A DNA stretch of 61,064 nt, counting the filler, from Sphacelaria rigidula (taxonomy: Eukaryota): the NCBI GenBank assembly GCA_964200075.2. It is 6 parts of 6 records of this genome, joined end to end, with 100 filler letters (N's around TTAATTAATTAA, not from the genome) between each part and the next. Parts side by side here need not be neighbours in the genome. Positions count along the whole stretch, not along the records: positions 50,972 to 61,064 come from CAXNAA020007162.1; 5 more parts are not named here. The stretch is one strand, 5' to 3'. Shown piece by piece: positions 5,001 to 61,064 of the stretch. The position numbers and the translations under genes are program-made. Numbering within the stretch: position 1 is the first letter of the stretch; the number at the start of each line of letters is the position of its first letter. Below the pieces are notes generated by a model. That model was not told where the DNA came from, ran no database searches, and saw only the letters and a list, made by a program, of their open reading frames with translations.

Positions 5001-5520
5001 CAGCCTTTTTTTTCGTGCAATCAAATACCCCCCCCACTATCGTAGGATGACTCGGACACAACCTCAACAGCAACATGTTGCTCACAACAAGAAATATCGC
5101 AACATGCGCCACGGCGCCGCAGCACGTGAACTCCACCGTGACAAAGGTTTACGCTTTGTCACCGCTGGCTATGAATTGGTAGCCACCAAGCATTGGGAAG
5201 ATGAGATCCGCGCGAAACAGGAAGTCCTCCCCAAAGGCGCCTACGTCTGGTACAAAGGCAGCGACAACCTTTGGTGGCTGGTCCAGACCCACTCCACAGA
5301 CCTAACCGCGCCTGACACATACATCGTGTGCTTTATCGATGACCCCGGACCTGTGCAGCTCAAGCTCCGCCCAGAGCCTTATACCACCAGTCCATCCGCA
5401 CCACGAGGGTCTTGGTGTCTTCAGCGACTCAAGTCCGAAGGCCTCCGCCGCAGAATCCAACGTAACATCGATCGCACACATGATGTCGACGCACCACTTG
5501 AAGCTTCCATAGACCTCCTG
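2010..5520 (+). pseudogene. Degenerate Ty3/gypsy (chromovirus-like) pol 3' half: Pro/Thr-rich linker, integrase, chromodomain, PWWP/Tudor-like tail
   Basis: Zinc-finger region CHLGVTRTLALLERFYW*...RRCFKCQARK. Core motifs VSFDYFGP, LLSDNGQQ and SAYHPNGNGDTKRVNHTMAQMLS. Chromodomain-like AVSHISSHQ...YKTHWQGLQRASWERESDL. Several stops and frameshifts; the 5' boundary is approximate. Confidence 0.9.
4804..5053. mobile_element. 250-bp MITE with GAG...CTC termini and 4-bp TSD (Sola2-like by termini and TSD)
   Basis: TIR GAGTCATCCTACGATAG(G)nTATTT pairs with AAATAC(C)nACTATCGTAGGATGACTC. GGAC is duplicated at 4800-4803 and 5054-5057. Excision restores the gypsy reading frame. Confidence 0.92.
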
Positions 5521-6810
5521 CTTTTCGATCCACGACATTTTTCATTTCTCTTTTATTTCCTTCCCTTGTCGATTAGATATTTTCCCTTCTTCCACCACTC
5601 AGGACACACCAGTGCCACCCACCGACTCCTTCAACAGCCTGCAACCGGAGCCCCTTCAGCGCACAACATCGGACAACGAATGGACCTTGCCCGGAGCACC
5701 ATCATCCTCGGCTACTGGAGCTTTTCGTATTCCCGCTCTTGGTGGTTTTGACTGGCGCTGGACCCCTCGCAGTATTTGAGTTGCTGATTCCCTTGCTTTC
5801 TCAGCCGCCATGCGCTCGCCGCATGTGATTGACCTTTTTCGGTGGTTGAGCTTGGTACCACCCATGTAAACGTTGTGTCCCTGGTGTGTCCCCCCTTTTG
5901 CTTCTTTGATTTTGGCTAGCGCCCCGAAGGATTTTGTGTTCATCTGTTAAGTATGCTAGCCCGCAGCAGCATTGTGTGCTCCTGCGCCTTCAAGCGCACG
6001 TGCGCTTTTCGGTAGCAGATTTTGATTCCCTTGTTTGAGGTGTGGGAGGATCGGGCAACGGAGTGGATGTTGCCCTCGTCGTCTGGCGTGTACCTTCTTT
6101 TTCAGCCACGACGGCCGAGTGCTTTTATAACATTGAGTCGCCTTCCTTGTCGCTCATTACTTGACGTGCAGAAAAACCTCCATTTTCGTTGCTTTTCGAT
6201 ATTTCTCATCGCAACTGTAATAGAGCTTCGTCTGGATGGGCTAGTGCCATGAAGCTAGGAGGCGTTTATGATCAAGTCTGGGACTTTATAGTTGCGGGTC
6301 TGATCAAGCTTGACTAGGCCGGATGTGAGACTGATGAAAGGGTACAGGCATGGCTTTTTGTGAGCCTTCCCGACTCACTCGCTAAGTGGAGCTGACAGCT
6401 AAACAATTGCTATAGCCGGAGAGCAACGTGAGAGAGCATTGAACGGAGCGATAACGAATATGAGTGAACAAGAGTCTTTTGTACCAAGTGGATATTGCTT
6501 ACTGCGTGAAGCTTTTGAGGTGTGAACTGATTTGGACACGACCGTAACCTGAACCTGCGAGGATTGATCTTGCAAGGATCTGATCTGACCCGCATGCACC
6601 CAAAGGTGCATGCTTCACAACACCATAACATGGGATCCAAGATACTGCGCAATAAGTGGTACGAACAAACTTGTTGGTGCATCGTATTCGAGGACATTCC
6701 ACCTAGGCCTTGATCATTTGGAACAGAGTCTTGCATCTGCGATTTCTGTGCGGCGATCATTTCAACCGTCGGGGCGTCAGAATTTGTAGCATACAGTCGG
6801 ATATTGCCCA

Positions 6811-10095: not shown

Positions 10096-10195
10096 NNNNN
10101 NNNNNNNNNNNNNNNNNNNNNNNNNNNNNNNNNNNNNNNTTAATTAATTAANNNNNNNNNNNNNNNNNNNNNNNNNNNNNNNNNNNNNNNNNNNN
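10096..10195. other. Artificial contig linker (N44-TTAATTAATTAA-N44)
   Basis: 100-bp N run containing a six-frame stop linker. Confidence 0.99.
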
Positions 10196-11599: not shown

Positions 11600-14500
11600 T
11601 TACAACTGAATACCAAACTTATTCGAAATGCGAGCAGCAACGGCATGAGCCACGCGCAATTTACGCAACTCCTTCGTGAGAAATTCCGGAGCGGTCTCAA
11701 AAATATCCTTGAAAGGCTCCCACGTACGCTCCTCAACTTCGGAACCAACCCAGTCGACCAATACGATCAACGAACGATCGTCTGCTTCTTCCACTCGGAC
11801 AATACCAGCCATTTGTAATTGCCCCTGATTGAAGGCGTGCTAGAAGACGTCCTTAATCAGCCCTAACATCAAGCTGCGAGTCTACAAAAATAATGCGAAC
11901 GAGCTACTTGGGCGGTCTGAACACGACCGGAAACAATGTCCTGGATCTCAAACACGTGCGGGGGGGTGAGCACCAACCACTCTCCATGAACCAGTCCGCG
12001 TCGCCATCAACTTGGGCGTAACGCCCGGACGACGCACGCGTGAATACAAGACAGAGTCGCCTACCTCGAAATTCGGCAATTCCAGCCAGCCCCGACGAGA
12101 ACCCCTCACGCCTACGCGCACGTTCAGCGGCAATACGCTCCTTCACTTGAACGTGGAAGCATTCGTGCAAGTCCAAGACTCGTTGCAATGCACGCTTAAG
12201 TTGACCATCATCCAAGACATCACACTTCCATTCCCCCTCCGACGAAGACGCCAACACCGAGAAAGACGTCCGAGGAGCACGACCAAACCTCACGTAGTAC
12301 GGCGTACTATCGTGACGACGATACGCTATATTGAGCGCCGATTGTACCGCAGGCAACACGTCAACACACTCGGAAACCGCTCTACGCGGCTCAACCAGAA
12401 TAGAGCGGAGAGCACGACCTACTTTCTTGACCATGCGTTCGCACGTGCCGTTAGACCACGGGGAATACGCCACCGCAGACTGGGATCAACGTGTAAACCC
12501 TCTAGCAATCGGGCCAAGATCGCATTCATAAAATGCGTGGCGGTGTCACTCACCCACACACGCGGCACCCCCAAAGTATTGCCCCAATTTAACACAGGTG
12601 CAGCAGTCGATTCAGCTGTACACATTGCCACTGGTTCCAGAGACACGAAGTTGCTCAAATCATCCATTATTACCCAAATGAATCGAAACCCAGCACCCTC
12701 CCGCGAACCTTGGGAAGCTAGCGGGCCACTCTCGCCCACGTACAAGAAGTCAAAATGAACGACTTCATTCGGCACGGTCCCGTGGACCGTTTCACCGGGC
12801 GGGCGGGGAACAACATCGCCCACCCTCAAGTTAGCACAGTGAAGACACTGGCGGACAAATTCGCGCACATGAGTTTCTATTCCCTGACAGACACAAAACT
12901 CTTGCAAGCGCACGAGCGTCGCAGCCACACCACGATGCCCGGCGTCGCGCATGTGCGCGCAAATCATCAGACGTACCTGCAACTGGTTATCAGAACTCGG
13001 AAGTCACAAAACGTTCCAGTCACGCACATGCACACGAAACAGACCTTCACGATCCAAGATAGCAGTACCGATGTCCGACTCGAAAGGTTGCACGTCCGCA
13101 TCTTCGCCCCCAAGGTCTTTTCGTTGCGCTTGGCGGACAACATATTTGGATGGCATCGAGTCATCAGGTTCACACGAACCATGAACGGCCACAGAGCGCA
13201 TAGGCAAAGCCGGAATATTCACCCAGCGCGGAAGCAAGTCACCCCACGCGTTACGGTCACCCGAAATGTGGCAAATTGAGTAACGATACTGGCCGAGAAC
13301 ACCTTTCCTACCTACCGTCGTGCCAACGCCTTCGACACAAATGTAACGCACGCTTCCGGGTTGAAAATATACACGAGATTTCGATGATCCGTGAAAATGT
13401 ACACGCGATCCCACAAACGATGTTCCAAACGACGAAAGGTTCTCACGATAGCAAAACCTTCCTTGTCAACTGTGGTCCAACGCAACTGCGAACCCTTGAA
13501 ACTACCACTGAGGAAAGCCAGTGGTTCATGCGTCATATCCTCGATCGCTAAGCGTCGTTTCGTTTCAACTTCAGACACCTGCGTGACAAACCTACCCCAA
13601 TGGCACTCAGAAGCATCCGAAACCAACACCTGGCAATCAGGACGAGGATGGAACAGCGTCACGGCATGGGCCAGCAGATCCTTCGCTGCCGCCCACGCCT
13701 GCAGCCTGCCCTCCGTCCACAATGCAGGCGGAGTAGCACGCTGTTTTGCTACACGCTTCGTCCGCCTCGCAGCACCCGCCATGAGGTTTTCGAGGGAAAA
13801 ACGCAAGGGAGCTACGATTTCTGCCGTACGCGACAACGAGGTACGCATCCAACTCACGGCATAAAGGAATTGCATGAGTTCTGCGGCCGTCTCCGGGCGC
13901 TGCATATCAAACAGACGCGGCAATCTGACAGGGCCATGAGATACGCGTCCGCGTGAGTACACTTTCCCACACCACACGAGTTCACTAGCAAAAACGGTGC
14001 ACTTGTGCGCAGCCGCAAACAAACCAACACTCTTTGAACGAACCAAGATGGCATCACGCGTGTCTCAAATTTCCTCTTCCGTGTCCGTGAAAAATAGTAC
14101 ATCATCCACCCATATCTTACACTTCTGCCATGATGCGTTGAAAATACATCGTGGCATTCGGCACGCCTTGCGGCACTCGCTTCGGGGTGAACAAGCCAAA
14201 CGGAGTCGTGGTGGTGACAATCCTCTCCGCCTCCTCCGCCAATGGCATCTGCCAGTAACCTTGGAGCAGGTCCAACTTGCCAAAAAAACGAGCACGCAAC
14301 AGATCAAGTATGACGGACTTTTGGTTGGGCATTACACCCGGCGACTTCTCAACCTGCTCACTCACGGCCTTGTAGTCGCTTACCAGGCGAAACGAGTCCT
14401 TTTCGAAATCGCCATAGCCGGACTGGACAACACCACCTGGAACTTCTGGAACACCAACCCGAGCGCCAAAAGAGCCACCATGCACGACGCCAACCGGCTC

Positions 14501-20290: not shown

Positions 20291-20390
20291 NNNNNNNNNN
20301 NNNNNNNNNNNNNNNNNNNNNNNNNNNNNNNNNNTTAATTAATTAANNNNNNNNNNNNNNNNNNNNNNNNNNNNNNNNNNNNNNNNNNNN
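20291..20390. other. Artificial contig linker
   Basis: N run with TTAATTAATTAA. Confidence 0.99.
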
Positions 20391-27614: not shown

Positions 27615-30431
27615 TTCTGTTCAGTATGTATCCCTATGGTGCCACCTCCCCGTTGCTCCACCTATAGTTCTTCCCTTTTTCCCGTCCCTCGCCGAAAACT
27701 TGAAAGCCCTCCCCCCGGCTCTCCGAACCCTTCCCCCTCCTTGCTGTCGATGCGTTCCCTTTGATAGTATTACAGTAACTTTGAGCTGTGATGCAGCAGA
27801 TTGTAGACCTGTAAGTGCAGATGCCTGTTGCCAACGTACGCTATTGTACCGTGTGTCTAGTGAACGCTCCTTCAGAAGGTAATGTTCGTAGTTGGGGGGA
27901 AAGGGGTGTGCGGCTCAGTGGTTCACTGAAACCAAGATAATATTAAATATCTTGAAAATACTACAGCCCTCAAAGTATAGGGGAAATAGAGACACGGTTG
28001 TAACTGTCAGTTCTAAGATGTAACCGTCAATTTTGCTCCGCAAAAATAAAACGCGGCGTTTTCCATTTTGTGAACATTAGATTTTGCCTTGCGTTTTCCT
28101 CGTGGAGGTACATACATGGTACACCGACTCTACTGTTGTACTGCATAGGTCTCCCGTTCGTGCATATTGCCTTGTTTACGATTCAGTTATATGAGTAGTG
28201 AGTCGATGGCGGTGTCGATGACCACGAGTGTCTCAGTGGACACCAGCAAGAGAAATGTGAGCATCATGTTGCGTCAAAGATCAACCGGCCGGCAGTGTGT
28301 GTTCGGAGCGCCATATGATCAGTTCGGGTCACCCGCACCTATCCGCCGAATCCGCTCCAAGAACGAACTGGAACCAAGCGTTGTGGCGCATTTTGATGTA
28401 AGGGGCACAAGCATATCTCGGGATGGTGGGTAGAATAGTAGTTGCTCTATAGGGTATCACAGTTATTCGATTGACGGCCTGCGACACCTGCCTTTCGTTC
28501 GTGCAGATACGAAGATTACAGCCAGTGCACGAACCATAGATGAAGCGTTAGGTGCACTGTTCGGCCACGTGACAATGCCTTGGGGGGTATACTTTGCCAT
28601 CGTAAGGATGCATATGTAGAGATTGGGGTAGGTTGGTCTCGTGTTTGCCTTGTATGTGGCGACCATGCTGTTTAGTCGCCGTCTTGCCGTTTTGCTACAG
28701 CAAGCATATAGTGTAGGGGTACCTGAGTGGGGGTCAGATAGGCAAGGTGCTCGGTCAACGACCGACGCATGAGCAGCAGTACCGCAGTCGGTTGAGTGTC
28801 ACCGAGTGATGCGGCGGGACAAGAAACAGCAGCAGGCATCAATGCAATGAACACTGTGTATACAGCGTACACATCTTTCGCTGATTCCTGTTTCATCCTC
28901 GGAGTTGCGAAACCCCACTAATGGCCAAGCGGTTCGTTTATCCCCCACCGACTGCGTGGGCACCCGAACAACCACGTGACCCCGATAACCATACCAGTCG
29001 GTGTGTTTCTCCTACAGTACCTAGACACGTGCGAGTATATCGGTTACTTTCCAATGGAGCGAACGGCTCCCGGAACTCACTCGACATTCCATTGTTGTGA
29101 GGTTGTCCCATTGGGCTGAAAAAAAACTGCCAAGAGCCAAGCAAGCGTCCAAAGGCAACATGTTGATTGGACATCCCGCCTCATGATGTCGCGGCGACCA
29201 ATAATCAACATGATGACTTTGAAAGCTTGATTACCTCTCGGCTGTTTTTTTTTCATGCCGTGAAGATGGGCCTCAAACCCTGAGATCGCTCGTGCGATGC
29301 ACTCTTTTCCCCCATAACCCAGCCAATTTCGTGAACAAACGTCCAATTTGTCTCCATCCATTAGTTTGTAACACTGAAGCCGAACAACAGGATCGTGTTA
29401 CACGAGGTAACAAAACGCAAATGAACAAAAACATATTACTAGTATTACTTTTTGAGTGTTCAAGTTTCGGGGGAAATCTCTCTTACGAGAAAAACAATAA
29501 CCAAACGTTCGTGTCGCAATTCGGTAACATGAAAAAAGTCGATCCTCCCTACACCAAACCCACAAGTGGTTGTCGCATCTGCTAAGTGCACATCATGCTT
29601 GATCATTTGAGAATGAAATATTGTCGTTGCGGTTGCCAATCTTTTCGAGTTCACAAGTACTACTATTGTATCCATGAACACACATGTAACAATTTATCAA
29701 TCAAAACATGCGCCCATCCCACTAGCATGGCAGTCAGGGCAACAAACAACGCATGACAGGACACAACAGAGTCGAGAGAAAGATGATCAAGCCAGGGGTC
29801 TGTCGAAAAGACATTTCGGGAAACGTAGGCCCCAAGATCGAAAATTCGAGTTTTTGAAGGGAGGAGGGGGGAGGGTCGGGGGAGGGGGACACCCAGCCTG
29901 ATGTCCCCCAGTTTATAGCCGAGGCATTGATGCGGTCAGCTGCCGTGTACAGAGATCCTTGGTATGGAGACCGCTGAGATGGCGGACACGCCGCCCCCCC
30001 CAAGCTCATCACTGACCATGATTACATGTATAGGATCATGTTCCGTGTCGTGTGCCTCGGGTATTTACCAGTATTCCGAGCAAGTTTGGCGAGGCGTGAG
30101 ATAATGTTGCTACTTTGGCTACAGGCTATCGCTACCGTGCTCTCGTGTGCATACATATGTGTGAGTGTGGCCGGCATCCAAGGTCATCGGGACAGAGCGG
30201 GCGAGAAGCAGAAGCAAATACACAAACCTTGCAAAACAGACCAAACTGTTCGGTTTTTGTCAGTGTTTTTTTTTTACAATATTTGGGAAGGAAAGGGATG
30301 CCAGTTTTCGGAAAATTGCCCTCCGGCAGGGGGGGGCAACGTGTACAAAATCTTCTCCCGACAAACCCCCGCGCAAGCTTACGAAAAATGAGAGCCGCGC
30401 TCATCGCACTGCATCCCCCCCCCCCCCCACC

Positions 30432-30470
<39 letters not shown>

Positions 30471-30484
30471 ACCACCCACCCCCC

Positions 30485-30584
30485 NNNNNNNNNNNNNNNN
30501 NNNNNNNNNNNNNNNNNNNNNNNNNNNNTTAATTAATTAANNNNNNNNNNNNNNNNNNNNNNNNNNNNNNNNNNNNNNNNNNNN
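30485..30584. other. Artificial contig linker
   Basis: N run with TTAATTAATTAA. Confidence 0.99.
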
Positions 30585-36599: not shown

Positions 36600-39500
36600 G
36601 ACCACGAGCTGACTAAAGAACACGTTACTTGTGCCCACGTAATCTATGGTCGAGGTATCGTGACCAAATTGAGAAATACGGCTTGACCGCGAAGTAGTCC
36701 CCCTGTAGGGGAACAAAGTGACCATTTTGATAGCAGTAGTTGGTCAAAATGGTCCCTCTGCTCTGCTCGAGCCTCGTTCTTGGTTCACAATTTTCCGTGG
36801 GAAACTTCGCAACACACATGGTTGACTTGAGCTTTTTGGCTATTCTACGCACGGGCCTCCACCCTCCGGTCAAAACTTACCCCCTGCCCCCGGTCCCTGT
36901 ATTTCCGTGTGAGGAATCTCATAAGCCTTTCAGATCCAGATTTTTTTGGAGACGCTGTAGATGATGGGCACATCCGGCGTGCCTTACATCTAGCGAAAGA
37001 TACGCTTTACAGCTGCCAAATGACGTGTACGAGGTTTGCTCATGTAGCGCGCAACCTGGGTAACATTGAAGGCTATGTCGAACCTTGTACATTGAGATAA
37101 AAAATTAAGGCTTCCAACCACGGCTTGATTTTTCTAGTCGCTTGTTGATCCAGAAGATGTTGCTCCATGTCTTGGTGGTTGTTGTTGATGCCTGGTGCGC
37201 GTACTGCGTCCAAGAGTCCATATTGAATTTGTGTATTTGTGCTGAGACAGTTTGAAGGTTCCTCACCCTGTATCGCGTATAACCTCCATGCCGAGGATGA
37301 GAGACACTGGTCCAATCTCCGAGATGGAAAACTTCGTCTTGAGTGTGTCTTGTATGTCTTGGAAAAAAAATTATGGAGGGTCTCGTTAGAAGGATATCGT
37401 CAACGAACAATGTCAACGTGACGCAATTGTCATTTTGTCTACCAATATACACGTAGGGGTCGCTTGCAGTGACAGTAAACCCAATTTTCCCTAACTCGGA
37501 GTTGATGGTGAAGTTTCAGACATTTGGACTTTGACGCAGACCATAACGTGCGCGACGAAGACGTATTACGTGAGGTTGCCCGGTAGCAGGGTCGCTAGTG
37601 AACACGTCCTCCTGCGGTTTTCCATTTCAAAACGCCGTTTGAACGCCAAGCGCAATTAGTGGCCAGTTTTGAAGGGCGGCTATCGCAAGAAGAATTCGTT
37701 GGCTTTCGAGCCTGCAAACCGGTGCAAACGTACTCCTGCGATGGAATCCGTGTCGTTGTGCCCATCCTTGCACAACGAGTCGAGCCTTGAAGCGTCTGTC
37801 AGCTTTGACCTTAATACACCCAACGCGTGCCAATTATGCTGTTGTTCGGGGGAAAACCTCCAGCTGAAATAATATCAGCCACGCGATGATCTTGGATGCT
37901 ACGCAGCTCATTCAACATAGCTGTTCTCCACTTCCATGCGTAAGGTGAGAAAAAAGCCTGCTTGAAGTTGTTTGGGACAGGAATGGAAGCTGGTGGCACG
38001 ACGATTTTGATGCCAATCGTTCAAATATACTGCAAAACAGTTTTCAAGACCATGGATGGGTGTGGTGAAGTTTCTGCCGTCAGGGCTAGCTTGCGCAGTT
38101 CTCGGGATTGCTGTTGAGTAGTAAAAAAGGGTGAAGTGTGATCCACGTTGCCGGCAGAACGTAGTCGCCTTCGATGAGTAGAGGCAGTCGAACTGTTGTC
38201 GGAGTTGTGCAGCTGTGTTATGCCGTCAAAAACGTTGTCGTTGGAGTCAATAATTTTATGCTGAATTTTTTCCTCGCATCGCTGGGTATTAATATCTTCC
38301 GCCCAAGTAGTCGGAGATGAACCTTGCCACATGTTGGTTGGAGCTCCGACTGCTTCTTCTATGAATGTAACATTCCTGGGACTGCAAATCCTGCCAGAAT
38401 GCCGGTCGGAAATTCGGTATAAAGGGCTGGCCCTGTCGTACCCTATTATAACTCCTTCCCGAGCTTTGTCCTTCAGCTTAGTAAGATGTCCTTTCTTGGA
38501 TACGAACGCACGGCATCCGATAGTACGTAGGAACGATATTTTCGCCTGCTTCCCGAACATCCGGTAGTAGGGTGTTTTTCCGTTGATGCTCCGATGCGGT
38601 AGACGATTGATCAAAAATACTGCAGTGGCAGCAGTCTCTCCCCAAAGATATTTCGGAAGACTCGCTTTGTTGAACCCTTTTGGAACCGACTCCCCACGAG
38701 GGCTGTGTCTCATCCAATTGTTTTCGTGTCGAAAACGTGCGGCCCAATCAAATTCGCGTGTTTCTGATTCGTCTGCACCACTAATTTTCTCAGATGGTTG
38801 AGAACATGAATGCCGTGGACGTATCAAGTACGAGCAAATTCGATTCCACTTTACGTTTTCGAGTCGAAAACAATTTGATGAGACACGGCCTAACAAGGGG
38901 TTGACCCTGTGTTACTGAAACAATGAAAAAAAATAAGTCAGGGAGAGACCTGCCCAATCACGGCGAGGCGAAATTTATCGACCAGACCCGAAGGACCAGC
39001 GCGGGGACTGTTGCCGAGGGTGATGTCATTGCAAATATCGTTTGGGGATCCTGTCCCTGGCCTAGATGAGCCTTCCCATGCTCCCAAATGCAGGATGGTC
39101 GCAGCTTAGTTTATGGTACTACTTGCATTCAGTACAGCGTTCCCGGGATTTTCCGGGAGTTTTTAGGGTCGCCAGTCTATACTAATATGCAGGTGCTACA
39201 CTAACACAGGGTGGAGCGAAAAAAACCGGGAAGAAGTGTATATGCTACCATATGGTCATTTTCACGAGGCACTTAACCCCGGTGGGCCGTGTAAAGACAA
39301 AAGGAGCTACCGTCATGAATTCTGCGTGTCCCTCTGCCGATAACTTGCGGTGTATAGTTACCATGTATGTAGTGGGCGGGGATGAAGAAGCGGTCTATAG
39401 GCAGTTGATCTCGGTAGCTGACAACTGCCCAGAATGTGCAAGGGGGTATGCAGCGGCAGCTGCTGCTGCAGTCGGAGAGACGTACTGCACTGTACTGTAC

Positions 39501-40678: not shown

Positions 40679-40778
40679 NNNNNNNNNNNNNNNNNNNNNN
40701 NNNNNNNNNNNNNNNNNNNNNNTTAATTAATTAANNNNNNNNNNNNNNNNNNNNNNNNNNNNNNNNNNNNNNNNNNNN
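40679..40778. other. Artificial contig linker
   Basis: N run with TTAATTAATTAA. Confidence 0.99.
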
Positions 40779-50131: not shown

Positions 50132-50502
50132 TAGTTATACCGTGTAGGTCTATTGCAACTATTGTCGGTCGACAATAGTTGCAATAGGCCTATACACCGC
50201 CCAGTGCAGTTTTGGTCTATTGCATCTATTGACCATATATCGTGTTGTCTGTGTTCAGGTTGTGGTAAGTTTCAACGGTCGGACGGGTCATGGTCGCTTC
50301 CAATCACCAATATCTACGATTGCTGAGGCCTGAGTGCTCCGAAGAGACGAAACAACGTCGACTGCGGGTCAGAAACGTCTCTACAATGGGCAATTTTTGC
50401 GCTATTCCACGTTCCTGGTGTGCGTGTACCTTCAGGTTCAACTCTGAAAACAAGACCAAAGGATTTATTCGTGGGGTACAAATCAAGTACAACTGAAACC
50501 GA

Positions 50503-50871: not shown

Positions 50872-50971
50872 NNNNNNNNNNNNNNNNNNNNNNNNNNNNN
50901 NNNNNNNNNNNNNNNTTAATTAATTAANNNNNNNNNNNNNNNNNNNNNNNNNNNNNNNNNNNNNNNNNNNN
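50872..50971. other. Artificial contig linker
   Basis: N run with TTAATTAATTAA. Confidence 0.99.
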
Positions 50972-51670
50972 GCCACTTCCCGAGACAGCCACATCTTATA
51001 CACTGCCTCATGGGTGTCTCATTAGCGGGGGCCGCGGGATTGGACGATCTGAAGATTGATACTACTGCCAGAAACATGAACGGGTTTCGACGTGATTTGG
51101 TCGGCCTCCTTGACGCATAGGCGCCGCCGTTCAGTACTTTGTTGTGTGTGACGACGTTATTCTTGTCATGAGTTTTTTTCCCTCTTGAAACCTTCAGACC
51201 GTACAGCAGTTACAATAGTTCGTTCCTTTGAGACCATTTTTCTTGTACACGTCTCGAGTATTGTGAACCACTGCTCTAGCAGCAAGGACCTGAAAAGCTG
51301 TTGGCCGAACGAAGTATCAAGTGTATTGTCGGTCATGATGTAGTACGCAGCTCTGAAATGGCGGGGTTATCATAGAAGGACTAATTCAAGTACCTTAACA
51401 TATTAAAAATGACCTTGATTTTTCCTGGGTGGCACAGATGAGGCAGTGCAGAATTTTCCCCGTGAAGGTCTTCTGAAAGGCAAGTTTGCATTGTTTTCCC
51501 ATGGTGATTGCCTGGGTATGTAGCCAATCCACTGCGTATGGGGGACCAACTTCTGTTTTGCTTCAGCTGCGGTGTTTAAGGACTGGCTCAGTGGTCCATT
51601 TTCTTCCTTGTTTGTGCTGTCTGTCATGATCTACTGGAGTCCGATAGGCATTCATCGCATATCCTCTGAA

Positions 51671-52225
51671 CGCGTTTCCGAAAGTCTGCAGTGATCAGCT
51701 CGAGTTGCTCTCTTTCGGCACCAAGAGGGCAACTCTTCCGGGTTGCTGCTCGCAGCTACTCCTGTCGTGTATAATGATAACTAGCGAGAATGGCAACTCT
51801 CCTGCTGCAACGGCCTTGTTCGTGATGTTTGAAATGAGGCAAATGATGAATACACGGTGAAGTGAGCCGTGGGTGGCTCATGTTCATTTTTTTCGTCCTT
51901 GACAATGGCCACGCACGGCTCGCCTTGCATTGATTGCTGAACTCTACGTTTGCTCTGGCTCATTTTCCGTGGACCCGCTATACGCTGCCCTTGACTCCTC
52001 GCACAACGACATGGCCGCCTACGAGAAGGCGAGCCGTGCGTGGCTTTTCATAATTTGCCTCATTTTTATACCATGAGCAAGACCACCGCAGCAGGAGAGT
52101 TGCCAGTCTTGCCAGTCATCATAACATACGACGGGAGAGCCTGCGAGCAGCAACCCGGGAGAGTTGCCCTCGTTGTGCCGAAAGAGAGCAGCTCGAGCTG
52201 ATCACTGCAGACTTTCGGAAATACG
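51671..52225. repeat. Long diverged inverted repeat (arms 51671-51926 and 52026-52225, ~100-nt spacer)
   Basis: TTTCCGAAAGTCTGCAGTGATCAGCTCGAG...GCCACGCACGGCTCGCCTT is mirrored by AAGGCGAGCCGTGCGTGGC...CTCGAGCTGATCACTGCAGACTTTCGGAAA. The left arm has about 55 extra bp. Confidence 0.92.
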
Positions 52226-52897
52226 ATTCTTTTGTGTCAGCGTGATGTTTGCCAGCGTATACCTCGTAGAGATTACACCTTCGATAACCTGCTTTGTGAT
52301 GTCTCAGCATGTCGATTTCCGCACTTGTTGTGCGAAAGGAAGTGTACGTCTTCGAAGCTGTCGACTTCGTGAGGTATACACGCCCTGAATACCAAGTGTT
52401 AAACGGCGAAAACATAACGCGTTGCCGAAACTCCGCATAGACGCGGATCATTGCGAAGCACCAGCGGAGGGGCTCCTTGTTGACCCACACTAGACTGCTC
52501 TGTATACACCACCAGTGGTTTGAGTTGATTCGAGCGCTTCGTCGTGATCATCGCCTCACCCGACTAGAGTCCGTCGTTCTCGTAGACTTGAGTCGTCACA
52601 AAATTCGAGTGTTCTCGTGCTCATCTTGTGGGCCGCTATAATGGTTTGTATCATCACGCGAGCCTGTCTCGCTTGGCTCGTTGAGGTCTCTCGTAGCGCT
52701 TGTCACAAAAATGAAGCCTGATGACGGTCGCCCTTTGGTGAGAGTTTCATGTCGGACAAAATGGAACGCTCAAAAGAGTGATGAAAATGTATGTATGCGC
52801 GCATGATTTTCTTTAGTATTGACGGGTCTGATTTTTTGTCGCACACTGCCTGATTCGCTACTCCAGCCGCGGTCACAAAAATGGAAGTCCGAGGGGG

Positions 52898-52969
52898 AAA
52901 CTAGTGTAGTGGTCAGTACACCACATTGTGGCTGTGGGAACCTGAGTTCGATTCTCGCATTGGACACCA
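52898..52969 (+). pseudogene. tRNA-His(GUG)-derived sequence with encoded CCA
   Basis: D arm TAGTGTAGTGGTCAGTAC; perfect anticodon stem CCACA/TGTGG around TT-GTG-GC; GAGTTCGATTCTC; ends GGAC-A-CCA. The acceptor stem does not pair. Confidence 0.85.
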
Positions 52970-53074
52970 TGTAACGGATATTTCAGAAAAGTAGGCTTAT
53001 ATTGACTACTAGCAAGGCTTCGTGATAGGAGCTGCCTGGATGTACAGATGAGCAATGCTATGGTAGGGGTTACA
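52970..53074 (-). mobile_element. Putative short (105-bp) LTR abutting the tRNA-His CCA
   Basis: TGTAAC...GTTACA inverted ends. On the minus strand ...GTTACA is followed directly by TGGTGTCCAAT..., which is PBS geometry. No partner LTR seen. Confidence 0.55.
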
Positions 53075-53349
53075 CTTTTTGTTTCTGGGTCTCTTTTTTG
53101 TTGGAGCCCAAATTATTTGTGCTGTCGAGGTGTACGGTTCGTCCGACGAACCAGGGTCTTTGTCAGCGAATAGCTGTTTCTATGCCCTCTCATCCCTTCC
53201 TCTCGCGAGGTCTCATGTAGGAGAGCACGTTTCCTGTTGGCTCGCGGAAATGGTCGGATGCACCGCAGGAAATAGAAGGTGATAAGCAGCTTGTAGTCGG
53301 TCTTTTTTAAAGGTCACGTTGAGGAGTTGCAGGGGGGGACTTCGAGAAC

Positions 53350-54690
53350 TTCAGCTTTCAAAATCCAGATCTTGAGATCTTGTGGTGCTGTCGATATTCC
53401 TCTGTCGTAAAGCACTCCACCGGACTTCTTGTACTTTCACTGCGCAATTCGGATCCGGCGTTTGAGCCGGGGGGTTGCGTTGGCCTTCCGTTGACGGGTG
53501 TTGCAAGGTAGGCAAAGCTCTGTATTTGAGCATGTGGTTGCCCCCGCGGCCATGATGTTCATCTTGCCCACTTGATGGCGATGCAGATATGCACATGGTC
53601 TCCGTCTTCTTCTCGTCAGCCCCAATGCTTAGTACGCTCTGAAATTGGATGTCATCTTGGCGACGCTCGCCTGTGACCTTGAAACAGTTCCAGCGTCAAT
53701 GGCGTACAGCATAGCTCATCATAGTTATTGCCGACGTGCCTTGTGTATGCCCTCCTCTCCAGCCCTCACTTCTACGGGCTGCTTAACCACATTCTCCTTC
53801 TCGTAGCCTTGGACCGGCGTACGTTCTGCCCGTTGTGCCCCCTCCTTGTCTCCCCCTCCCCCCCCCCCCCGTCCGTTCCTCTCCATTACTTGCACCACGC
53901 CTTTGAGTACTGTTCTCTCTCGTGGAAGCCTTTCTTTTGCTGCGTTCGGGACGGCGATGAAAAATGTGCGAAGTAGCAGCGGGGCTAAGCACGCACCCTT
54001 GCCCCTGTCCGATTGCGAACCAATTTGATAGTTCTCCATCATTCATGTGTACGCAGCCCTGCATCTTGTCGTGGACTGGGCGGATGACCGCGACCGTCTT
54101 GGCGCGCATCCCGAATCGCCCAAGCATGGCCCAGGGTACCGACGATTGAGGCATTCGCTTTCGCCAGGTCAGTAAAGCACTCGTACTCTACCGAGCCCAT
54201 GTAGTCTGTGCATCACGAACATTATACGTGTGTTGAGCCTCGAGTGCGGAGCTCACACTGTTCTTCTGGGAGGATTATGTTACGCCCCAGGTGTGCGCTG
54301 GGCTGGCTCACGATAATCTTCAGGGGGGCTTCCTCGGCGCGTGCCATTAGTGACATGCCCATGTATTTACCACAAATTAGCCACTGCTTCGTGTGCGCTT
54401 GATAGCAGCGTCCTTTTCATTACCGGGAAACATTATTTTCTGTCCCCACCTTGACAATGATGTCGTGAAGCTTCGGGAGGACGGTGTACTTCTCCCGCAT
54501 ATCTGATTTCAGCAGTTCCGCAGGTAGATCACCAGGTCATGTTGTCTTCCCCTTCGCAGAAATACCTAATGCGTCTTTGGTCTCCGTGATTGTCGGCGCG
54601 GTCGCGAGCGATATATGGACTGGGATCTGCGGAATCTGCATCACGATGCTGGGGTCGACGACGCCGACCCTCGCGTTCTGTGGCTTAATA
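53350..54690 (-). pseudogene. Degenerate non-LTR retrotransposon (RTE-like LINE) reverse transcriptase
   Basis: FTDLAKA; W.MLGRFGM...VAVIRPVHDKMQGCVHMNDGELSNWFAIGQG(..)QGCVLSP; MLYAIDAG (decayed YADD); many frameshifts. Confidence 0.85.
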
Positions 54691-56246
54691 TGAAAGTATC
54701 AACTCTATCTCTTTCGAGGATATCCGCCGGATATATCTGCAAGCCACCCTCGTAGCCCTCCATGTGTTGAGATTGGTGGTCCTTCGATCCCTCCAGGTTT
54801 ATCCCTTTTGAGATGAGCGTGTAGAGTAGTTTACAGCTGAAACAGGGGTTCACGTATTTTCTTCAGAGTCGGCGATTTCCAATAGTGTTTTCTCGTACCA
54901 CCGCTTATCTCAGGGAATGTTCAATCCAAAATGTTGGGGATCGGGAGATACTAGGCAGCCCCTGCGCATTCCGAGACAAAACAATTTCTGCACTCAATAT
55001 TGAACGACCTCCGGGATGTCCGGTTTTCGGGGGTCCTGCGACTACCCAGCCCCAGGTTCTAATCCTTGGGTATTTCTGCTCTATTGAAGCGATCCCGATT
55101 GTTTTTTTGCACAAATGTGAAGGATTTATTTTTCATTCCTATCTACGCATTGTGCTACAGCCAAACACTGTGTTATTTGGACCAGTGACGGTCGAAAACA
55201 CCACCTGATACACGAGGTAATTCCTCTGTATCACCTCGACAACATCAAATGAGCATTGTCCCTGAGCACGATCTCTTACTTTTCCCATTATCTATCGACC
55301 CTAAGACTTTCGAGTGTTATGGAAGAGCACTCTATAGAAGATAATTCAGAGAAGTACTCAACTACAAAAGTTGTCCAACCGCAACTACAAAAGTTGTCCA
55401 ACCGAGCTCTGTATAGCATAGGGGGGGGTGAACCAATCCCGATCGCTCTCGTGAATTATTATACAGGCCCTTGATTTTTATTTATATCTATCCATTATGC
55501 AAGAGCCGAAAAAAATGTGTTTTGGAACAAAAACGGCCAATGGTGTTGATCAAGCCGATAACCACTGAGCTACCCAGTGAGCGCTGACTGAGTAGCTCAG
55601 TGGTTATCGGCTTGATCAACAAAAGCTAGTGCCCGAAGTCCGTCTAGGTGTGAGACGGTCAAGCCACGAACTTCGATGTCACCCCGGGGTTGCAACCTCT
55701 GTGATCAGCGCTACTTACTTGCCCGGAATAATATCCATCTGAACGAAGAACCGGAATAATATCCATCGGAAGCCCGCAAGGAGGATTATCGGCAATTTTC
55801 TGACCATGACCAACTGGCCAAGAAAATTGCGTCACGGGTGAGAGTCGAACTCCGGACTTGAACTTTTGATGAGCATGCCGACAACCACTGAGCTAGTCAG
55901 TTAGCAAGAAAATTGCGTCGCAGGTGAGAATTGAACTCTGGACTTGAGCTTTTGTTGACCACGCCGATAACCACTGAGCTACTCAGCTAGCTTTTGTTGA
56001 TCAAGCCAATGCCCACTGAGCTACTCAGTCTCAGCTTTTGTTGACTGAGTAGCTCAGTGGTTATCGGCTTGATCAACAAAAGCTCAAATCCGGAGTTTGA
56101 TTCTCACCCGTGACGCAATTTTCTTGGCCTATTGACTACGGTCAGAAAATTACCGATAACCCTCCTTGCGGACTTCCGATGGATACTGTTCTGGCTGTTC
56201 ACTCCGATGGATATTATTCCGGGCAAGTGAGCAGCGTCGATTACGG

Positions 56247-56597
56247 CACACGCGGCCATTTGACAACCACCGGAGTTCCGCCAGAGCGGTCAATTTTCGA
56301 GCCTACCGAGGGATTAAGCGCCTCCAGAGGAATTAAACGCCTCGAGAGGAGTAGTTTCTTGTTTCCTCCAGAAAGATTAAACGCCTCCGGAGGCTTGTTT
56401 TGTCTCTGGAAGGCCGCGCGTCCCTCCGGAGGCATTTTGCTACCCCCAAATTCCTCCGGAGGGGTGCGGGACCCATCAGAGCGGTCGCTTGTGGTTTTCT
56501 CCAGAGGGATTCGAAGCCTCCGGAGGCTTGTTTTGCCTCTGGGTAGCCGCGCATCCCTCCGGAGGCATTTTGAGGGGTAGCCAAATGGCCACGTGTG
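56247..56597. mobile_element. MITE with CACACG(C/T)GGCCATTTG TIRs (CACTA/CMC-like), inserted in array unit 2
   Basis: 16-bp TIR with 1 mismatch; absent from the other units; many internal CCTCCGGAGG palindromes. Confidence 0.88.
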
Positions 56598-56943
56598 AGG
56601 GGTTGCAACCCTGGGGTGGAATCCAAGTTTGTGGCATAACAGCTAGACGGACTTTGGCCATTAGCTTTTGTCGATCAAGCCAATACCACTGAGCTACTCG
56701 GTCAGCAGACTCAGTCAGCAGTCAGCAGTCAGCAAGTAGCTCAGTGGTTATTGGCTTCATGAACGAAAACTAGTAGCCGAAGTCCGTCTACTGTATAGCT
56801 GTTATGCCACGAACTTCGATTTCACCCCAGGGTTGCAACCCCTGGAATCAACGCTGATCACTTGCCCGGAATAATATCCATCGGAATGAACAACCGGAAT
56901 GATATCCATCGGAAGTCCGCAAGGAGGGTTATCGACAATTTTC

Positions 56944-57201
56944 CAAGGATCGGACACGTTAATGATTAACGTCCAGAAATTACGTGATTTACTGCGATCG
57001 ATTCGTGCGATACGAATCAATCCTTAGGCTTTGTTTCCAGCGTTTCAAGCCAGCTACGCGCAGCCCAGGCACGTGGAATGGCGCAAAAGTGGCGTGGAGA
57101 CCTGTTCGACTAGCGGTCGACTTTTTTCTCCCTTTCGATCAATCAGGCCTAAGAAATCGTGGATTTGGTGATTCGAACCGGCGATGATCCGTCCGAACCG
57201 T
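56944..57201. mobile_element. MITE (hAT-like by CA...TG ends and possible 8-bp TSD) inserted in array unit 3
   Basis: Ends CAAGGATCGGAC and GTCCGAACCGTG; flanks CAATTTTC and TAATTTTT; inverted homologue at about 50275-50485. Confidence 0.7.
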
Positions 57202-59345
57202 GTAATTTTTTTGCCATGATCAGTTGACGAAGGAAATTATGTCACGGGTGAGAATGAAACCCTGGACTTGGGTTTTGTTGATCACGCCAATAACCACTGA
57301 GCTACTCAGTCAGCGCTGACTGAGTGGTCATCAAGAAATTTGTGTCACGGGTGAGAAAATTGCCGATAACCCTCCTCGCGGACTTCCGATGAATATTATT
57401 CCGGTTCTTCATTCCAATGGATATTATCTCATTCAAGTGAGCATCATTGATTCCAGGGGTTGCAACCCTGGGGTGAAATCAAAGTGCGTGGCTTGACAGC
57501 TAGAAGACGGACTTCGGACACTACTCTATGTAGCTCCTTTTTTTGTTGATGAAGCCAGAAAGCACTGAGCTACTCAGTCAGGGCTGACTGAGTAGCTCCC
57601 TGACTGAGTAGCTCAGTGCTTATTGGCTTCATCAACAAGTGGCACCCTCATCAATTCAGCACGAAAGGCGTTCAATTTCGAGCGCGGAAATCATTCTTGC
57701 TTCGGAATGTGGGCGGATGCTTAGTTCCTCCCCATCCCCAACGTTGTGGCCAAACTTTCACTGGGATGAGCGGTGGTATGCGCAAAAACTAATAAAAATG
57801 GCCGACTACGGAAAAATTACAAAAAAAAGCATCTGTTGTTTCAGCTGAAAACTACTGTTGGCTTTTTTTTATCACCGTCCGCCCGGTCGGAGGCGTTCTG
57901 CGTGGTTGTCCACGTATATAATGGTTGTCTTGAGCTACTTGAGCGTTTCGTCTATCGTGAATACATCATTCCGGGTTGGCTTTCCGCGCGTCATGTCTCA
58001 CCAACCATGCATGCATGGGGGTGTCAATTTGTGCGTGAGTGGTGAAGTCGCCCCATCCGACTTGACACGCTCATCGCCACACGGGTTGGATTACCTCGCT
58101 CGGTACGATACAGACGATGTCAATGAAGGGGGTGACTGGGCCATCGATGGTGGGTGTTGTTGTAGGGAGTGACGTTAAGCGGAGTTGTGCTCCGATGGCG
58201 CGGACCACCTCCCCTCTGACAGGTCGGTTCGAGTTGTCTGCGGTCCGATTATTTTGTTTACACCTCCGTTGGAGCGGTCGTGTTTCTGACTGTTGGTGGC
58301 AATTTGAAATCGGTTTTGTAATCGCGTCCAAACATCTACGATTGGATCATCAGAATGCCTCTTCACTATACTTGTTCCTTTGCCTGAACCTGCACTTCAC
58401 ACGCGACGGTCTACGTGGCGCATTAGGACATACAAAACAGTCGAGCCGGTATCTCGTCCTCTGCCAGGTAGGGTTTTGTTCCCTCGAACGTGTGTGATGT
58501 GCCTCCCTTGCGTGTGCCGAAACTAGTGGTCGCAGCGAAAATCGGTCCTTAGCATGTCGTTATCGCTCTTATGTCATAACGTGTGCACCTATTTACCACC
58601 CCACTGTTGGTACTCTCGCGTTGGCCACTGCGGGGATTTGCATCCATCAGAATCAGAGCTTGTTCTTTTGGGGGTGCAATTGTCGTTATGTTGTCCAGTT
58701 CGGTCCAGAACTCGGATTTCACGCCCAGACTTGCGCACTTGGTTGAAGCCCATGCTACAATGAAAGTCAGCTAGGTGTTTGTGTCTGTTTTCCGGGTTCG
58801 TATCCTCGTCGGTCATTCGTCAAAGGTAAGGTAAGACGAAGATCATGGAAAATAACCCCTCTTACACATTAAACAATAACACTGGATTTGAAGGTAAGTT
58901 TAATTCCAATAATGAGAGATTTCCTATCTGCCACAGCGTGTTTGCTCGCGTGTCCTTTCGCAGCCGCACCTCACGTCCGCGTTTACGGAAGCGCTGAGGT
59001 TGCACGAAAAACGAGGGCCAAACATACTTCCTGTCGTTGTATTCGCTTTCGTGTCGAAAGTACAGAGATACCCACAATCGCCCCAGTCCAACGTAGTGGA
59101 ACAGACAGGTGGAACAAAAATCGGAGAAGCTTCAGATCACACAAACACGTCCATCCGCACAAACCTTGTGTACGGTACAAGTTTGTGCAGCCGAGCGGCG
59201 GCGGCGCACATAGAATAGCTGGGTTGACTACCCACGTGGCGGGGGTGAGGTCCGATTTGCTATTATCTTGCTGGTGCTACTGTGGTATCGTGTTTCGTCG
59301 GGAGGAATCGTGCAAGGGGAGCATTGAGAGAGCACAGACAGGGAT

Positions 59346-59477
59346 ATGGAACCCCGACCTCTGTTATCGAGGAGCAGCGGCTCGGCCATGATGAGGGCTG
59401 GTCGTGTAGCTGTGCTAGTGGGGTCGGTGCTCGGGGGGAAGTCTGGAGTTGTCGTGGCTGATGATTACAACCATAAG
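59346..59477 (+). CDS. Possible first exon of a signal-peptide protein, TM9SF/nonaspanin-like
   Basis: MEPRPLLSRSSGSAMMRAGRVAVLVGSVLGGKSGVVVADDYNHK|gtgtgt. A hydrophobic stretch followed by ADDYNHK resembles the D...H.Y start of mature TM9SF proteins. No downstream exon confirmed. Confidence 0.35.
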
Positions 59478-59657
59478 GTGTGTATGTGCGTGTACGCGTT
59501 GGTGTCCGGATTCCTGGGGTGCAGGAGGTGTGGGTGGTTGTCTGTTAAGTGTCTGTACTTGGCTGTCCTGATGGGATTTTGCTGTGTGCAATATTAATCT
59601 GTTTCGTGTATGGTTCTCTGTACTTTATTGTACTACTGTACTACTGTACCGCTACTC

Positions 59658-60160
59658 GGTCGCCCCGGTGGCTCAGTTGGTAACCTCGTAACCTTCTGAT
59701 GGTTGAGTAGAGGGGTTCGATTCCCGGAGTAATCTGGAATATTTCCTCACACCATGCTCAACAGTGGAGAGTGACTATGTCGTGGGTACACAAAGTTCGA
59801 CTTAACGGTTGACGAGGGAAAGGTACAGCGGAACCCCTCTTGCGATAAAAAATGAAGGCAAGCACCGCAGACCGGAGGGGGGGCGGGGGGGGGGGCGAAA
59901 GCAGTTGTTGCTTGCGTGGGTACGGTGATCATGTGCCACGCGGAGCACCGTTCCTACTCCTAATAGAGACACCTCCAACATTCTGGCGCTCATTACTTTC
60001 CTTCGCAGACCGGAGGGGGGGTATTAAAAACAAATAAAGAAGAAAAAGCTCCTGTGTTGACCGTCCTCCTGTGACCCGGGCCGATGCGTCTACATATACC
60101 GAAAGGTGCAGACTGGTGCCCAGAATAAATGGGACGACAACACACAACAACACACACACT
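59658..60160 (+). mobile_element. tRNA-derived SINE
   Basis: A box TGGCTCAGTTGG, B box GGTTCGATTCC, CA-rich tail; colinear with 48471-48816 plus an internal extra segment. Confidence 0.88.
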
Positions 60161-61064
60161 GTGGAACATTGTTCGTCACGTCAAAAGCATCTGGGGCCCG
60201 TCGTTTTCGAGGCAGAGGCGGCGGATGTCTGTGTATGCTCTCTTCCAGACACGCGGCGGTGCAACCTTTCTGGAGCAAATAGGGAGCCCCCTGCTCCGCC
60301 TTACGACATGTAGGATATGGGTTGAAACGTACTTGTGCACGGGGATTGCAATGGAATTGTTTCTGTACTGTCACCGGGGCGAATGTGCTATACTGTCCTG
60401 TGCGGCATCGTACTACCTACTGAGTAACGTACTTTGTGCTGCTGTCTATCACAGTGTATTTTGTTATCGATACAGAAGGCGTATACGAGGTGCAACAACA
60501 GTATCACCCCATTTCCCGGTTACATTATGCACACCAACAGTAGTGCTGACGGCAACAACTACAGACAGTACAGCGTGGTGTTGTCCCGACCGAACAGCAA
60601 AGTGTACACCAGGCAATGATCGGCAACGAGAATACGTTGACTGTGACCGTAGTGTAGTTCATGCAGTACAACAGTGTCGACGAGGTATTCGGAAGGTTTG
60701 TAGCTGTGTGCTGTACCGCACGGAGCTTCTGGCGTCTTCCGCAGATATCAGCGGACGGATGTGTAGCGACATGGTTTGACAAGGAATGGGATCTTGACCC
60801 GATTGTCCGCCAGCTTAGGTCATCCGTTGAACCAGAATCAATTTGAGTTGACAAATTAATGCATGGCCCAGATAACCTACCCCGGCGGTCACGGCATTGG
60901 GCGACGGATTCAACTAGTAAATGAAATGTTCGTAGACTTGACATATAACTTGGAGGCGGGGGCGCGGGGGCCGGTTGGGGGGGGGGGGGGGGGGGGGGTT
61001 ACTCTTCTTTGTTTGGTGTTGTCCCGCTTATGTGTTGGAGGATTTTCGGTTTTGTGCTCGTCTG

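Follow-up and report, generated by a model that had tools for sequence, protein, structure and literature searches.

How did four copies of one short, non-coding sequence come to lie in alternating orientation, with a palindrome at every junction and at both ends? This question is raised by positions 55544–57638, hereafter the array, of a 61,064-nucleotide stretch from the Sphacelaria rigidula assembly GCA_964200075.2; the whole stretch is referred to as the window. The array is a genuine, unusual-looking, decayed, low-copy palindromic repeat cluster of 2.1 kb. The reading that we favour, tentatively and with slightly more doubt than belief, is that it is the non-coding fossil of an inverted multimerisation, at the DNA level, of one ~320-bp unit by strand turn-around, followed by decay. 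We infer the turn-around mechanism, the order of the events and the tRNA-gene origin of the unit ends. An earlier note on this DNA had proposed a new class of mobile element, linked to RNA polymerase III (Pol III) and borrowing an integrase, and this proposal is not supported by the tests that could be made here. There is no sign that the array as such is still active or has a function today.

The anatomy described in that note, with alternating units, palindromic junctions and capped ends, was borne out by reading of the sequence and by repeat searches. The ~320-bp unit is present four times across 55544–57638 in the orientation + − + −, and five palindromes (H1 to H5) separate and cap the four units. 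In the following list, B denotes the B-box end of a unit and X its other end.

55583–55905, plus strand: unit 1, 323 bp, consisting of terminal repeat, body and inverted tRNA-gene-like end (nhmmer E 5.6e-112)
56043–56706, minus strand: unit 2, interrupted by nested repeat 1
56720–57313, plus strand: unit 3, interrupted by nested repeat 2
57314–57582, minus strand: unit 4, truncated and rearranged at its B end
55583–55645 and 55843–55905: the unit's own terminal inverted repeat (I9), 63 nt, 78%
55544–55621: H1, left cap; I19 arms 55544–55582 and 55583–55621, 39 nt, 95% complementary, 0-nt spacer
55989–56084: H2, junction of B end with B end; I16 arms 55989–56030 and 56043–56084, 42 nt, 93%, 12-nt loop; fold z −13.3
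56663–56771 (about): H3, junction of X end with X end (I25); its centre, 56707–56735, is scrambled, with short CAGTCAG-type slippage repeats
57273–57325: H4, spacerless junction with a perfect 22-nt palindrome at 57304–57325
57543–57638: H5, right cap; I17 arms 57543–57583 and 57598–57638, 41 nt, 95%, with 14 nt between them; fold z −13.6
55905–56030, minus strand: junction debris, comprising an 86-bp tandem duplicate of the tRNA-like end (55905–55991) and an extra terminal copy (55987–56030)

Each unit is bounded by terminal inverted repeats with a 39–45-nt core, reaching 63 nt at 78%; the core is 80–100% conserved among 11 copies. Longer repeats link unit to unit (I1, 207 nt, 84%; I2, 148 nt, 88%; I4, 98 nt, 90%; D3, 143 nt, 87%). 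In unit 4, most of the B-box end is gone, and the 25-nt segment 57332–57356 lies in the opposite orientation. A 36-nt terminal sequence gave six matches at up to three mismatches, all of them within the array (0.00 expected from shuffles), and profile hidden Markov models (HMMs) of the unit and of the unit end found no match in the window outside 55515–57670 at E ≤ 10. The window is made up of six ~10.1-kb pieces, and the array sits in the last (50972–61064). The pieces are separated by regular linkers at 10096–10195, 20291–20390, 30485–30584, 40679–40778 and 50872–50971, each consisting of two 44-N runs around a 12-nt all-frame stop spacer. Thus, the window is not one contiguous 61-kb stretch, and "elsewhere in the window" means the other sampled pieces. 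The only open reading frame (ORF) of at least 150 aa in the array (56110–56580) matched no Pfam family.

The palindromes are the most conspicuous part of this structure. H1 is a 78-bp spacerless palindrome with two mismatches, formed by an outer 39-nt arm and the terminal repeat of unit 1, and it folds with −62.2 kcal/mol (z −14.1 against shuffles). The spacer of H5 is a 16-nt tandem duplication (TRF 57584–57614), which is missing from contigs of the sequencing runs X3 and X4; counting H5 in this shorter form, three of the five palindromes (H1, H4 and H5) are spacerless in at least one allele. The junction at 57313/57314, previously called intact, is indeed a spacerless palindrome, but only 22 nt are perfect and the right arm is truncated after 11–12 nt. 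At the second junction, an 86-bp tandem duplication spans 55819–55991 (TRF periods 86 and 42). The alternating orientation is present as described, but it carries less weight than it had been given. Since the units have inverted ends, any two abutting units yield a palindromic junction, whatever their orientation. Only the unit interiors show orientation, so that an alternation of four, expected by chance in 2 of 16 cases, is weak evidence. Matches to microRNA hairpin families in Rfam were rejected, as all fell below threshold (the highest score was 45.7 bits, with a gathering score of 100); they arise because the palindromes of the array form long hairpins.

Five public sequencing runs, from two studies of which one is labelled algae metagenome, contain the stretch. 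The array was compared with short-read contigs of four of these runs (X1, X3, X4 and X5, covering both studies) at a likeness threshold of 90%. In answer to the concern that the array might be an assembly fold-back, contigs bridge all five palindromes, with matches that are exact or show 1–2 differences, and H4 is bridged by contigs of both X3 and X5.

55427–55627: X3, 2 differences
55598–56084: X1, exact
56569–56847: X1, exact; X4, 1 difference
57298–57480: X3, 2 differences
57350–57513 and beyond: X5, a 371-nt contig
57451–57900: X1, exact

None of the short-read contigs spans the whole array. At the local level, the array is not a fold-back assembly artefact.

Once the nested repeats are removed, pairwise comparison shows the units to be 80.2–85.2% identical. 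Among 246 ungapped columns, the informative splits number four for 12|34, zero for 13|24 and five for 14|23, while unit-specific singletons number 17, 12, 12 and 23 for units 1 to 4. As judged from these sequences, the star-like unit genealogy is most readily taken as that of a burst followed by independent decay. Two further repeats lie within the units.

56246–56597: nested repeat 1, within unit 2, high-copy and MITE-like (MITE, miniature inverted-repeat transposable element), with inverted ends and an internal 133-bp duplication
56947–57203: nested repeat 2, within unit 3, a very high-copy interspersed repeat

Nested repeat 1 has a contig depth of 1.6e4–9e4, as compared to ~25 for single-copy sequence, and 54–56 contigs diverge just behind 56597; the homology of unit 2 resumes at 56598, directly after it. 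For nested repeat 2, the depth is 3e4–6e5 and 104–129 contigs diverge behind 57202. A diverged copy of it is found at 50275–50472 (matched 50472–50275; 74.5% over 200). Both repeats were inserted later. Given that two high-copy interspersed repeats are nested within units that have diverged by 15–20%, the array is old. The age and the two nested repeats had already been recognised in the earlier note, in agreement with both the pairwise identities and the contig depth.

Any account of the array has to explain five features: the common centre of its palindromes, the junctions of like with like, the excess of palindromes over units by one, the burst-like genealogy and the debris at the palindromes. 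All five palindromes have one and the same centre, the outer end of the terminal repeat. The junctions read B:B, X:X and B:B, with four bodies and five palindromes. The secondary rearrangements, namely 86-bp and 42-bp tandem copies, 16-nt and 7-nt slippage and one truncated arm, are all located at palindromes. Turning back of a strand at the end of the repeat, followed by replication, would account for all five. A hairpin or turn-around step would best explain why the spacerless junctions share this centre, and four bodies with five palindromes joined by like ends form the pattern of a replicated hairpin-ended linear molecule. That no site supports the 13|24 split speaks against a dimer having been duplicated directly, and the lack of a target-site duplication (TSD) between units counts against double insertion, which would leave a target duplication in the junction. 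The low copy number of the unit (~1–11x), as compared to 1e4–6e5 for the nested repeats, was also counted in favour of multimerisation. Of the earlier interpretation, the anatomy and the hairpin or turn-around step are therefore retained, whereas the tRNA head, the integrase-type ends and the insertion of the element into its own junction find no support, on the grounds described below.

The proposed course of events would start from a unit bounded by 39–63-bp inverted repeats derived from a tRNA gene copy, with an A box, a B-like box and a T-run that are now degenerate. A strand would turn back on itself at the outer end of the repeat (...CAGC), either as a covalently closed hairpin end or by a template switch between leading strand and lagging strand, as in the "dog-bone" intermediate of origin-dependent inverted-repeat amplification (ODIRA). 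Replication through the turn would then produce head-to-head and tail-to-tail copies with spacerless palindromic junctions, and two or three such rounds would give four bodies and five palindromes. Subsequently, the palindromes would have been hit by slippage and partial deletion, the two high-copy repeats would have inserted, and the copies would have drifted by 15–20%.

Precedents are known from two reports. Hairpin-capped linear "dog-bone" DNA is described as replicating in vivo, in yeast, into an integration-competent inverted dimer (PMC4689423; PMC10766183), and in yeast inverted amplicons the junctions are described as undergoing secondary rearrangement, including deletion of one arm of a palindrome (PMC4689423). 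In the same reports, the products of ODIRA and of fold-back events are triplications that contain a replication origin and in which the junction still holds the loop of an interrupted short repeat (PMC4689423; PMC10766183). Alternating copies, palindromic junctions and secondary junction rearrangements are common to these amplicons of yeast and human and the array (PMC4689423; PMC10766183). On the other hand, the array has a 320-bp unit, four copies plus caps, and spacerless centres in three of five palindromes.

These differences and several other observations weigh against multimerisation by turn-around. ODIRA and fold-back amplicons are kilobases and larger. The four 320-bp units with their spacerless centres contrast with the triplicated, loop-retaining products of ODIRA, and the spacerless centres are more in keeping with a hairpin made by an enzyme than with a replication slip. 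The two caps share their end position in the terminal repeat, 39–40 nt from the axis, at ...CAACA; such equal caps suggest a defined terminus or a site-specific nick. A simple local duplication does not predict this shared end, except where the whole block was mirrored in the last step. The unit family is moreover dispersed, as differently joined pieces of it occur at other loci at single-copy depth. The possibility of a mirroring step can be assessed from an inverted repeat, Y, which encloses the array.

54825–55042, plus strand: left arm of Y (BLAST and global alignment)
55043–55543, no strand: left spacer between the Y arm and the array, ~500 bp, without a right-hand counterpart
57639–57856, minus strand: right arm of Y, directly adjoining the array; 57736–57822 is a ~64x repeat

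The Y arms (218 bp) are matched by BLAST between 54825–55006 and 57856–57669 (71% over 190, E 4.5e-19). In a global alignment these arms, which a mirroring step should also have copied, share 143/211 positions (67.8%), as compared to 203/253 (80.2%) for units 1 and 4, which are mirror partners of each other, a difference with a z of ~3 by our arithmetic. With Y arms that have diverged further than the outer units, the whole block is unlikely to have arisen by a single mirror duplication. A mirror duplication about H3, comprising the whole 3-kb block, is weakened by the divergence of the Y arms and by the unmatched 500 bp on the left. Y itself is the larger and older structure. Because the unit is far smaller than described amplicons, the centres are spacerless and the caps are equal, our confidence in multimerisation by turn-around stays limited. 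If this conservative reading is true, the array is an unusually small-scale (320 bp) case of hairpin-prone inverted repeats seeding palindromic amplification, which would make it a useful annotation caveat in a repeat-rich eukaryotic genome and not a discovery.

The surroundings of the array are themselves repetitive. In the left flank, 55387–55473 is a ~90x repeat, with a depth of 2142 against the single-copy reference of ~25–30 in run X1. Given that parts of the Y flanks are present at 60–90x, the array probably lies inside another repeated element. A joint 55536→57795 was found in one contig each of X1, X3 and X4 at single-copy depth, the shorter side being 29 letters. It skips the array together with 157 bp, and its break points lie in a 10-nt direct repeat (9/10 alike). 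This joint was rejected as an empty site, as it does not coincide with the array ends and runs between 10-nt direct repeats in repeated flanks; it may represent either a deletion allele or a paralogue of Y. Next to the ~90x segment, the left flank also contains a perfect 23-bp tandem duplication at 55359–55404.

The unit ends had been described as tRNA heads. The likeness to tRNA genes is one of motifs: the A-box consensus has 11 matches in the window, nine of them in the array (0.84 expected), and the 9-nt A-box core is present in eleven terminal-repeat copies. An A box with a B-like box at tRNA spacing occurs in three copies only, two of which are the following.

55823–55905, minus strand: tRNA-gene-like module of unit 1, with an A box, a B-like box 43 nt on, and then TTTT
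56040–56122, plus strand: best-kept tRNA-gene-like module, with the A box at 56050–56060, the B-like box from 56093 and TTTT at 56119–56122

ARAGORN predicted no tRNA in the window, and the Rfam tRNA model gave no match at E ≤ 10 on 55000–58200 (3.2 kb) or on the 106-nt best copy, 56030–56135. The tRNA-like RNA folds no better than shuffles (z −0.29 and +0.58) and forms no cloverleaf. The description as "tRNA-headed" thus does not hold beyond the motifs. The TTTT run lies ~77–80 nt from the tRNA-like start, which fits a copied tRNA gene with its own terminator and not the head of a short interspersed nuclear element (SINE). Pol III terminates at a T-run, and a terminator directly behind the tRNA-like part would stop transcription before the body. 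From this arrangement, the unit ends seem to be a degenerate copy of a tRNA gene together with its terminator. The A-box consensus and the B-like box at tRNA spacing, as motif matches, are also what the array may have in common with tRNA-derived SINEs. The array differs from these in that it has no tRNA-model match, its units have no 3′ tail and no TSD of variable length around single units, both unit ends are inverted copies of one sequence, and the T-run follows directly after the tRNA-like part, ahead of the body. Nor is there the high-copy dispersal of a SINE, the unit bodies standing at ~1–11x single-copy depth at 90% likeness or more.

The outer ends of the array had been interpreted as TG...CA termini with a 5-bp TSD, as left by an integrase. 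The flanks AATGG and AGTGG match at four of five positions, which by our arithmetic is expected by chance in ~1.6% of cases at a fixed length and place, and far more often when the length is free; the left flank is very nearly its own complement. The right edge varies between runs, as 2 nt precisely at the right array boundary (57637) are missing from contigs of X3 and X4. The TG...CA termini follow automatically from the palindromic nature of the end. In view of the imperfect TSD, the variable edge and these trivial termini, the interpretation is not supported. Insertions of the retroelement type with long terminal repeats (LTRs) differ further in that the array ends are inverted and not direct repeats. 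At the internal junctions, no target duplication is seen in the sequence, and the suggestion that the element inserts into its own end-junction is not supported for this reason.

If the array did not grow by turn-around, it could be the work of a low-copy, non-autonomous, MITE-like transposon with tRNA-derived terminal inverted repeats (TIRs), which inserted beside or into earlier copies of itself, or it could be one capped composite element of the form TGTTG...CAACA. We consider this unlikely. As in MITEs and other TIR transposons, the unit is small (~320 bp), non-coding and without an ORF, and it has inverted ends of 39–63 bp and a few dispersed relatives; the common end position of the two caps and the 4/5 likeness of the flanks also point this way. 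Pieces of the family joined differently were found in single-copy-depth contigs (55607→55815, with 20 other letters; 57320→57573, with 17; 57322→56906, with 30). One of these contigs consists of an end repeat, 20 letters and an inverted tRNA-like end, and would be a short body-less relative. These contigs indicate that a few other loci also carry the family, a dispersal expected of a mobile element, and they include related copies that are built differently from the array. Parts of units 2 and 3 reach 4–11x single-copy depth at 90% likeness or more, some of this from cross-mapping within the array.

In units 1 and 4, however, the bodies stand at only ~1.2–2.5x single-copy depth. The unit family is low copy, where contig depth counts only copies that are at least 90% alike and copies as diverged as the array units (80–85%) fall outside the count. 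Across the remaining ~58 kb of the window, the profile HMMs revealed no copy at E ≤ 10. As compared to MITEs, the array lacks a convincing TSD, is low in copy (~1–11x), has tRNA-gene-like ends and consists of units that abut without spacers. Transposable-element dimers that arise by double insertion (McGurk and Barbash 2018, PMC5932611) resemble it, in the passages concerned, in having adjacent copies, including head-to-head ones. Double insertion is described there as leaving a copy of the target duplication in the junction (PMC5932611), which the junctions of the array do not contain, and the outer TSD is imperfect, with a right edge that varies between runs. The star-like divergence suggests one burst at the array locus. 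No transposase, HUH/Rep or tyrosine recombinase domain was found by Pfam in 29 of the 30 ORFs of at least 150 aa in the window. Foldback (FB-type) elements share nested inverted repeats and hairpin-forming ends with the array, and may be compared with the enclosing inverted repeat Y. The ends of such elements are long arrays of short tandem subrepeats, in contrast to the single 39–63-bp tRNA-like sequences found here.

A more ordinary origin would be a tandem repeat of palindrome plus body, expanded by unequal crossing-over, in which bodies were later flipped by way of the flanking palindromes and the alternation is coincidental. Any segment between inverted repeats can invert by recombination, and the 2/16 chance of alternation among four units makes no great demand on coincidence. 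Such a repeat would also explain why there is one more palindrome than units, with a complete palindrome at the start and at the end of the array, and it accords with the tandem partial duplications at 55819–55991. We nevertheless regard it as quite unlikely. All three internal junctions join like ends (B:B, X:X and B:B), no unlike junction survives, and the 13|24 split expected from direct duplication of a dimer has no sites. The origin of the first spacerless palindrome would moreover be left unexplained.

The boldest explanation is that of a selfish, Pol III-linked, hairpin-ended replicon or transposon, multiplied by rolling-hairpin synthesis with a site-specific terminal nick, of which the array is an integrated tetramer; we hold it to be improbable. 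Parvovirus intermediates are described, in a passage of PMC3087758, as head-to-head or tail-to-tail concatemers. The array resembles these and other hairpin-telomere replicons in its head-to-head and tail-to-tail units, in having one palindrome per junction and in its full palindromes at the ends. The spacerless junctions centred on one point, with one more palindrome than units, the equal caps (39–41 nt) that stop at one and the same repeat base, as expected from a fixed nick site, and the differently joined relatives at other loci agree with such a replicon. This is, however, a likeness of architecture only; the array is non-coding, chromosomal, 15–20% decayed and part of a low-copy family. 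No Rep/HUH or other replication gene was detected in the window (29 of the 30 ORFs of at least 150 aa), although a trans-acting gene could lie elsewhere. The tRNA likeness fails both the covariance model and ARAGORN. No relative was found in viral, metagenome and prokaryote collections, which probably exclude the source organism. In particular, a 22-nt terminal-repeat pattern had no match in the metagenome, viral and prokaryote contig collections and a looser 32-position pattern had none in metagenome contigs; as the organism is probably outside them, these counts are uninformative on copy number. A 17-nt stretch of the terminal repeat was not found in literature text, and the papers retrieved on tRNA-derived TIR, MITE, foldback and SINE elements do not, by title or beginning of the abstract, describe this architecture.

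It is correspondingly doubtful, to a high degree, that the array stands for a non-coding, hairpin-ended DNA parasite with closed ends derived from a tRNA gene, parvovirus-like or "dog-bone"-like replication, a nick 39–40 nt from the axis and re-entry into the genome as a capped multimer. If capped termini were conserved genome-wide and young copies existed, this would point to a class of non-coding elements whose multiplication passes through hairpin-ended intermediates. If such a class were true, tRNA-gene fragments, with their Pol III boxes and as possible fork barriers, would be linked to palindrome formation.

The remaining alternative, that the array is an assembly fold-back artefact, is practically excluded: palindromes are known to give rise to chimeric reads and to misassembly and the whole array lies in no single contig, but contigs from four runs and two studies cross each of the five palindromes, and units that differ by 15–20% cannot be collapsed or mirrored copies of one another.

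Several features of the other pieces of the window may be recorded. Of mobile-element domains, Pfam found only those of LTR retrotransposons, at least 40 kb from the array and on other pieces. A dinoflagellate spliced-leader motif gave no match at up to three mismatches. Remnants with Integrase_H2C2 and RT_RNaseH domains, of Ty3/gypsy type, are located at 12419–14046 on the minus strand (region 11904–14046), and a copia-type SH3 domain was identified by Pfam at 38021–38896 on the minus strand, where the protein-atlas clusters are plant-dominated and serve as a lead only. Three adjacent ORFs are present at 2533–5751 on the plus strand; that at 3962–4897 is chromodomain/integrase-C-like, and Oomycota are commonest in its protein-atlas clusters, again as a lead only. 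A run of ~70 C (85% matches) at 30415–30484 directly precedes a linker and may be a piece-end or sequencing artefact. Finally, 1070–1439 is a 370-bp near-perfect palindrome with 182-nt arms, 97% complementary, and a 6-nt loop. Its sequence is unrelated to that of the array, and it indicates that long hairpin repeats in the Sphacelaria rigidula genome are not unique to the array locus.

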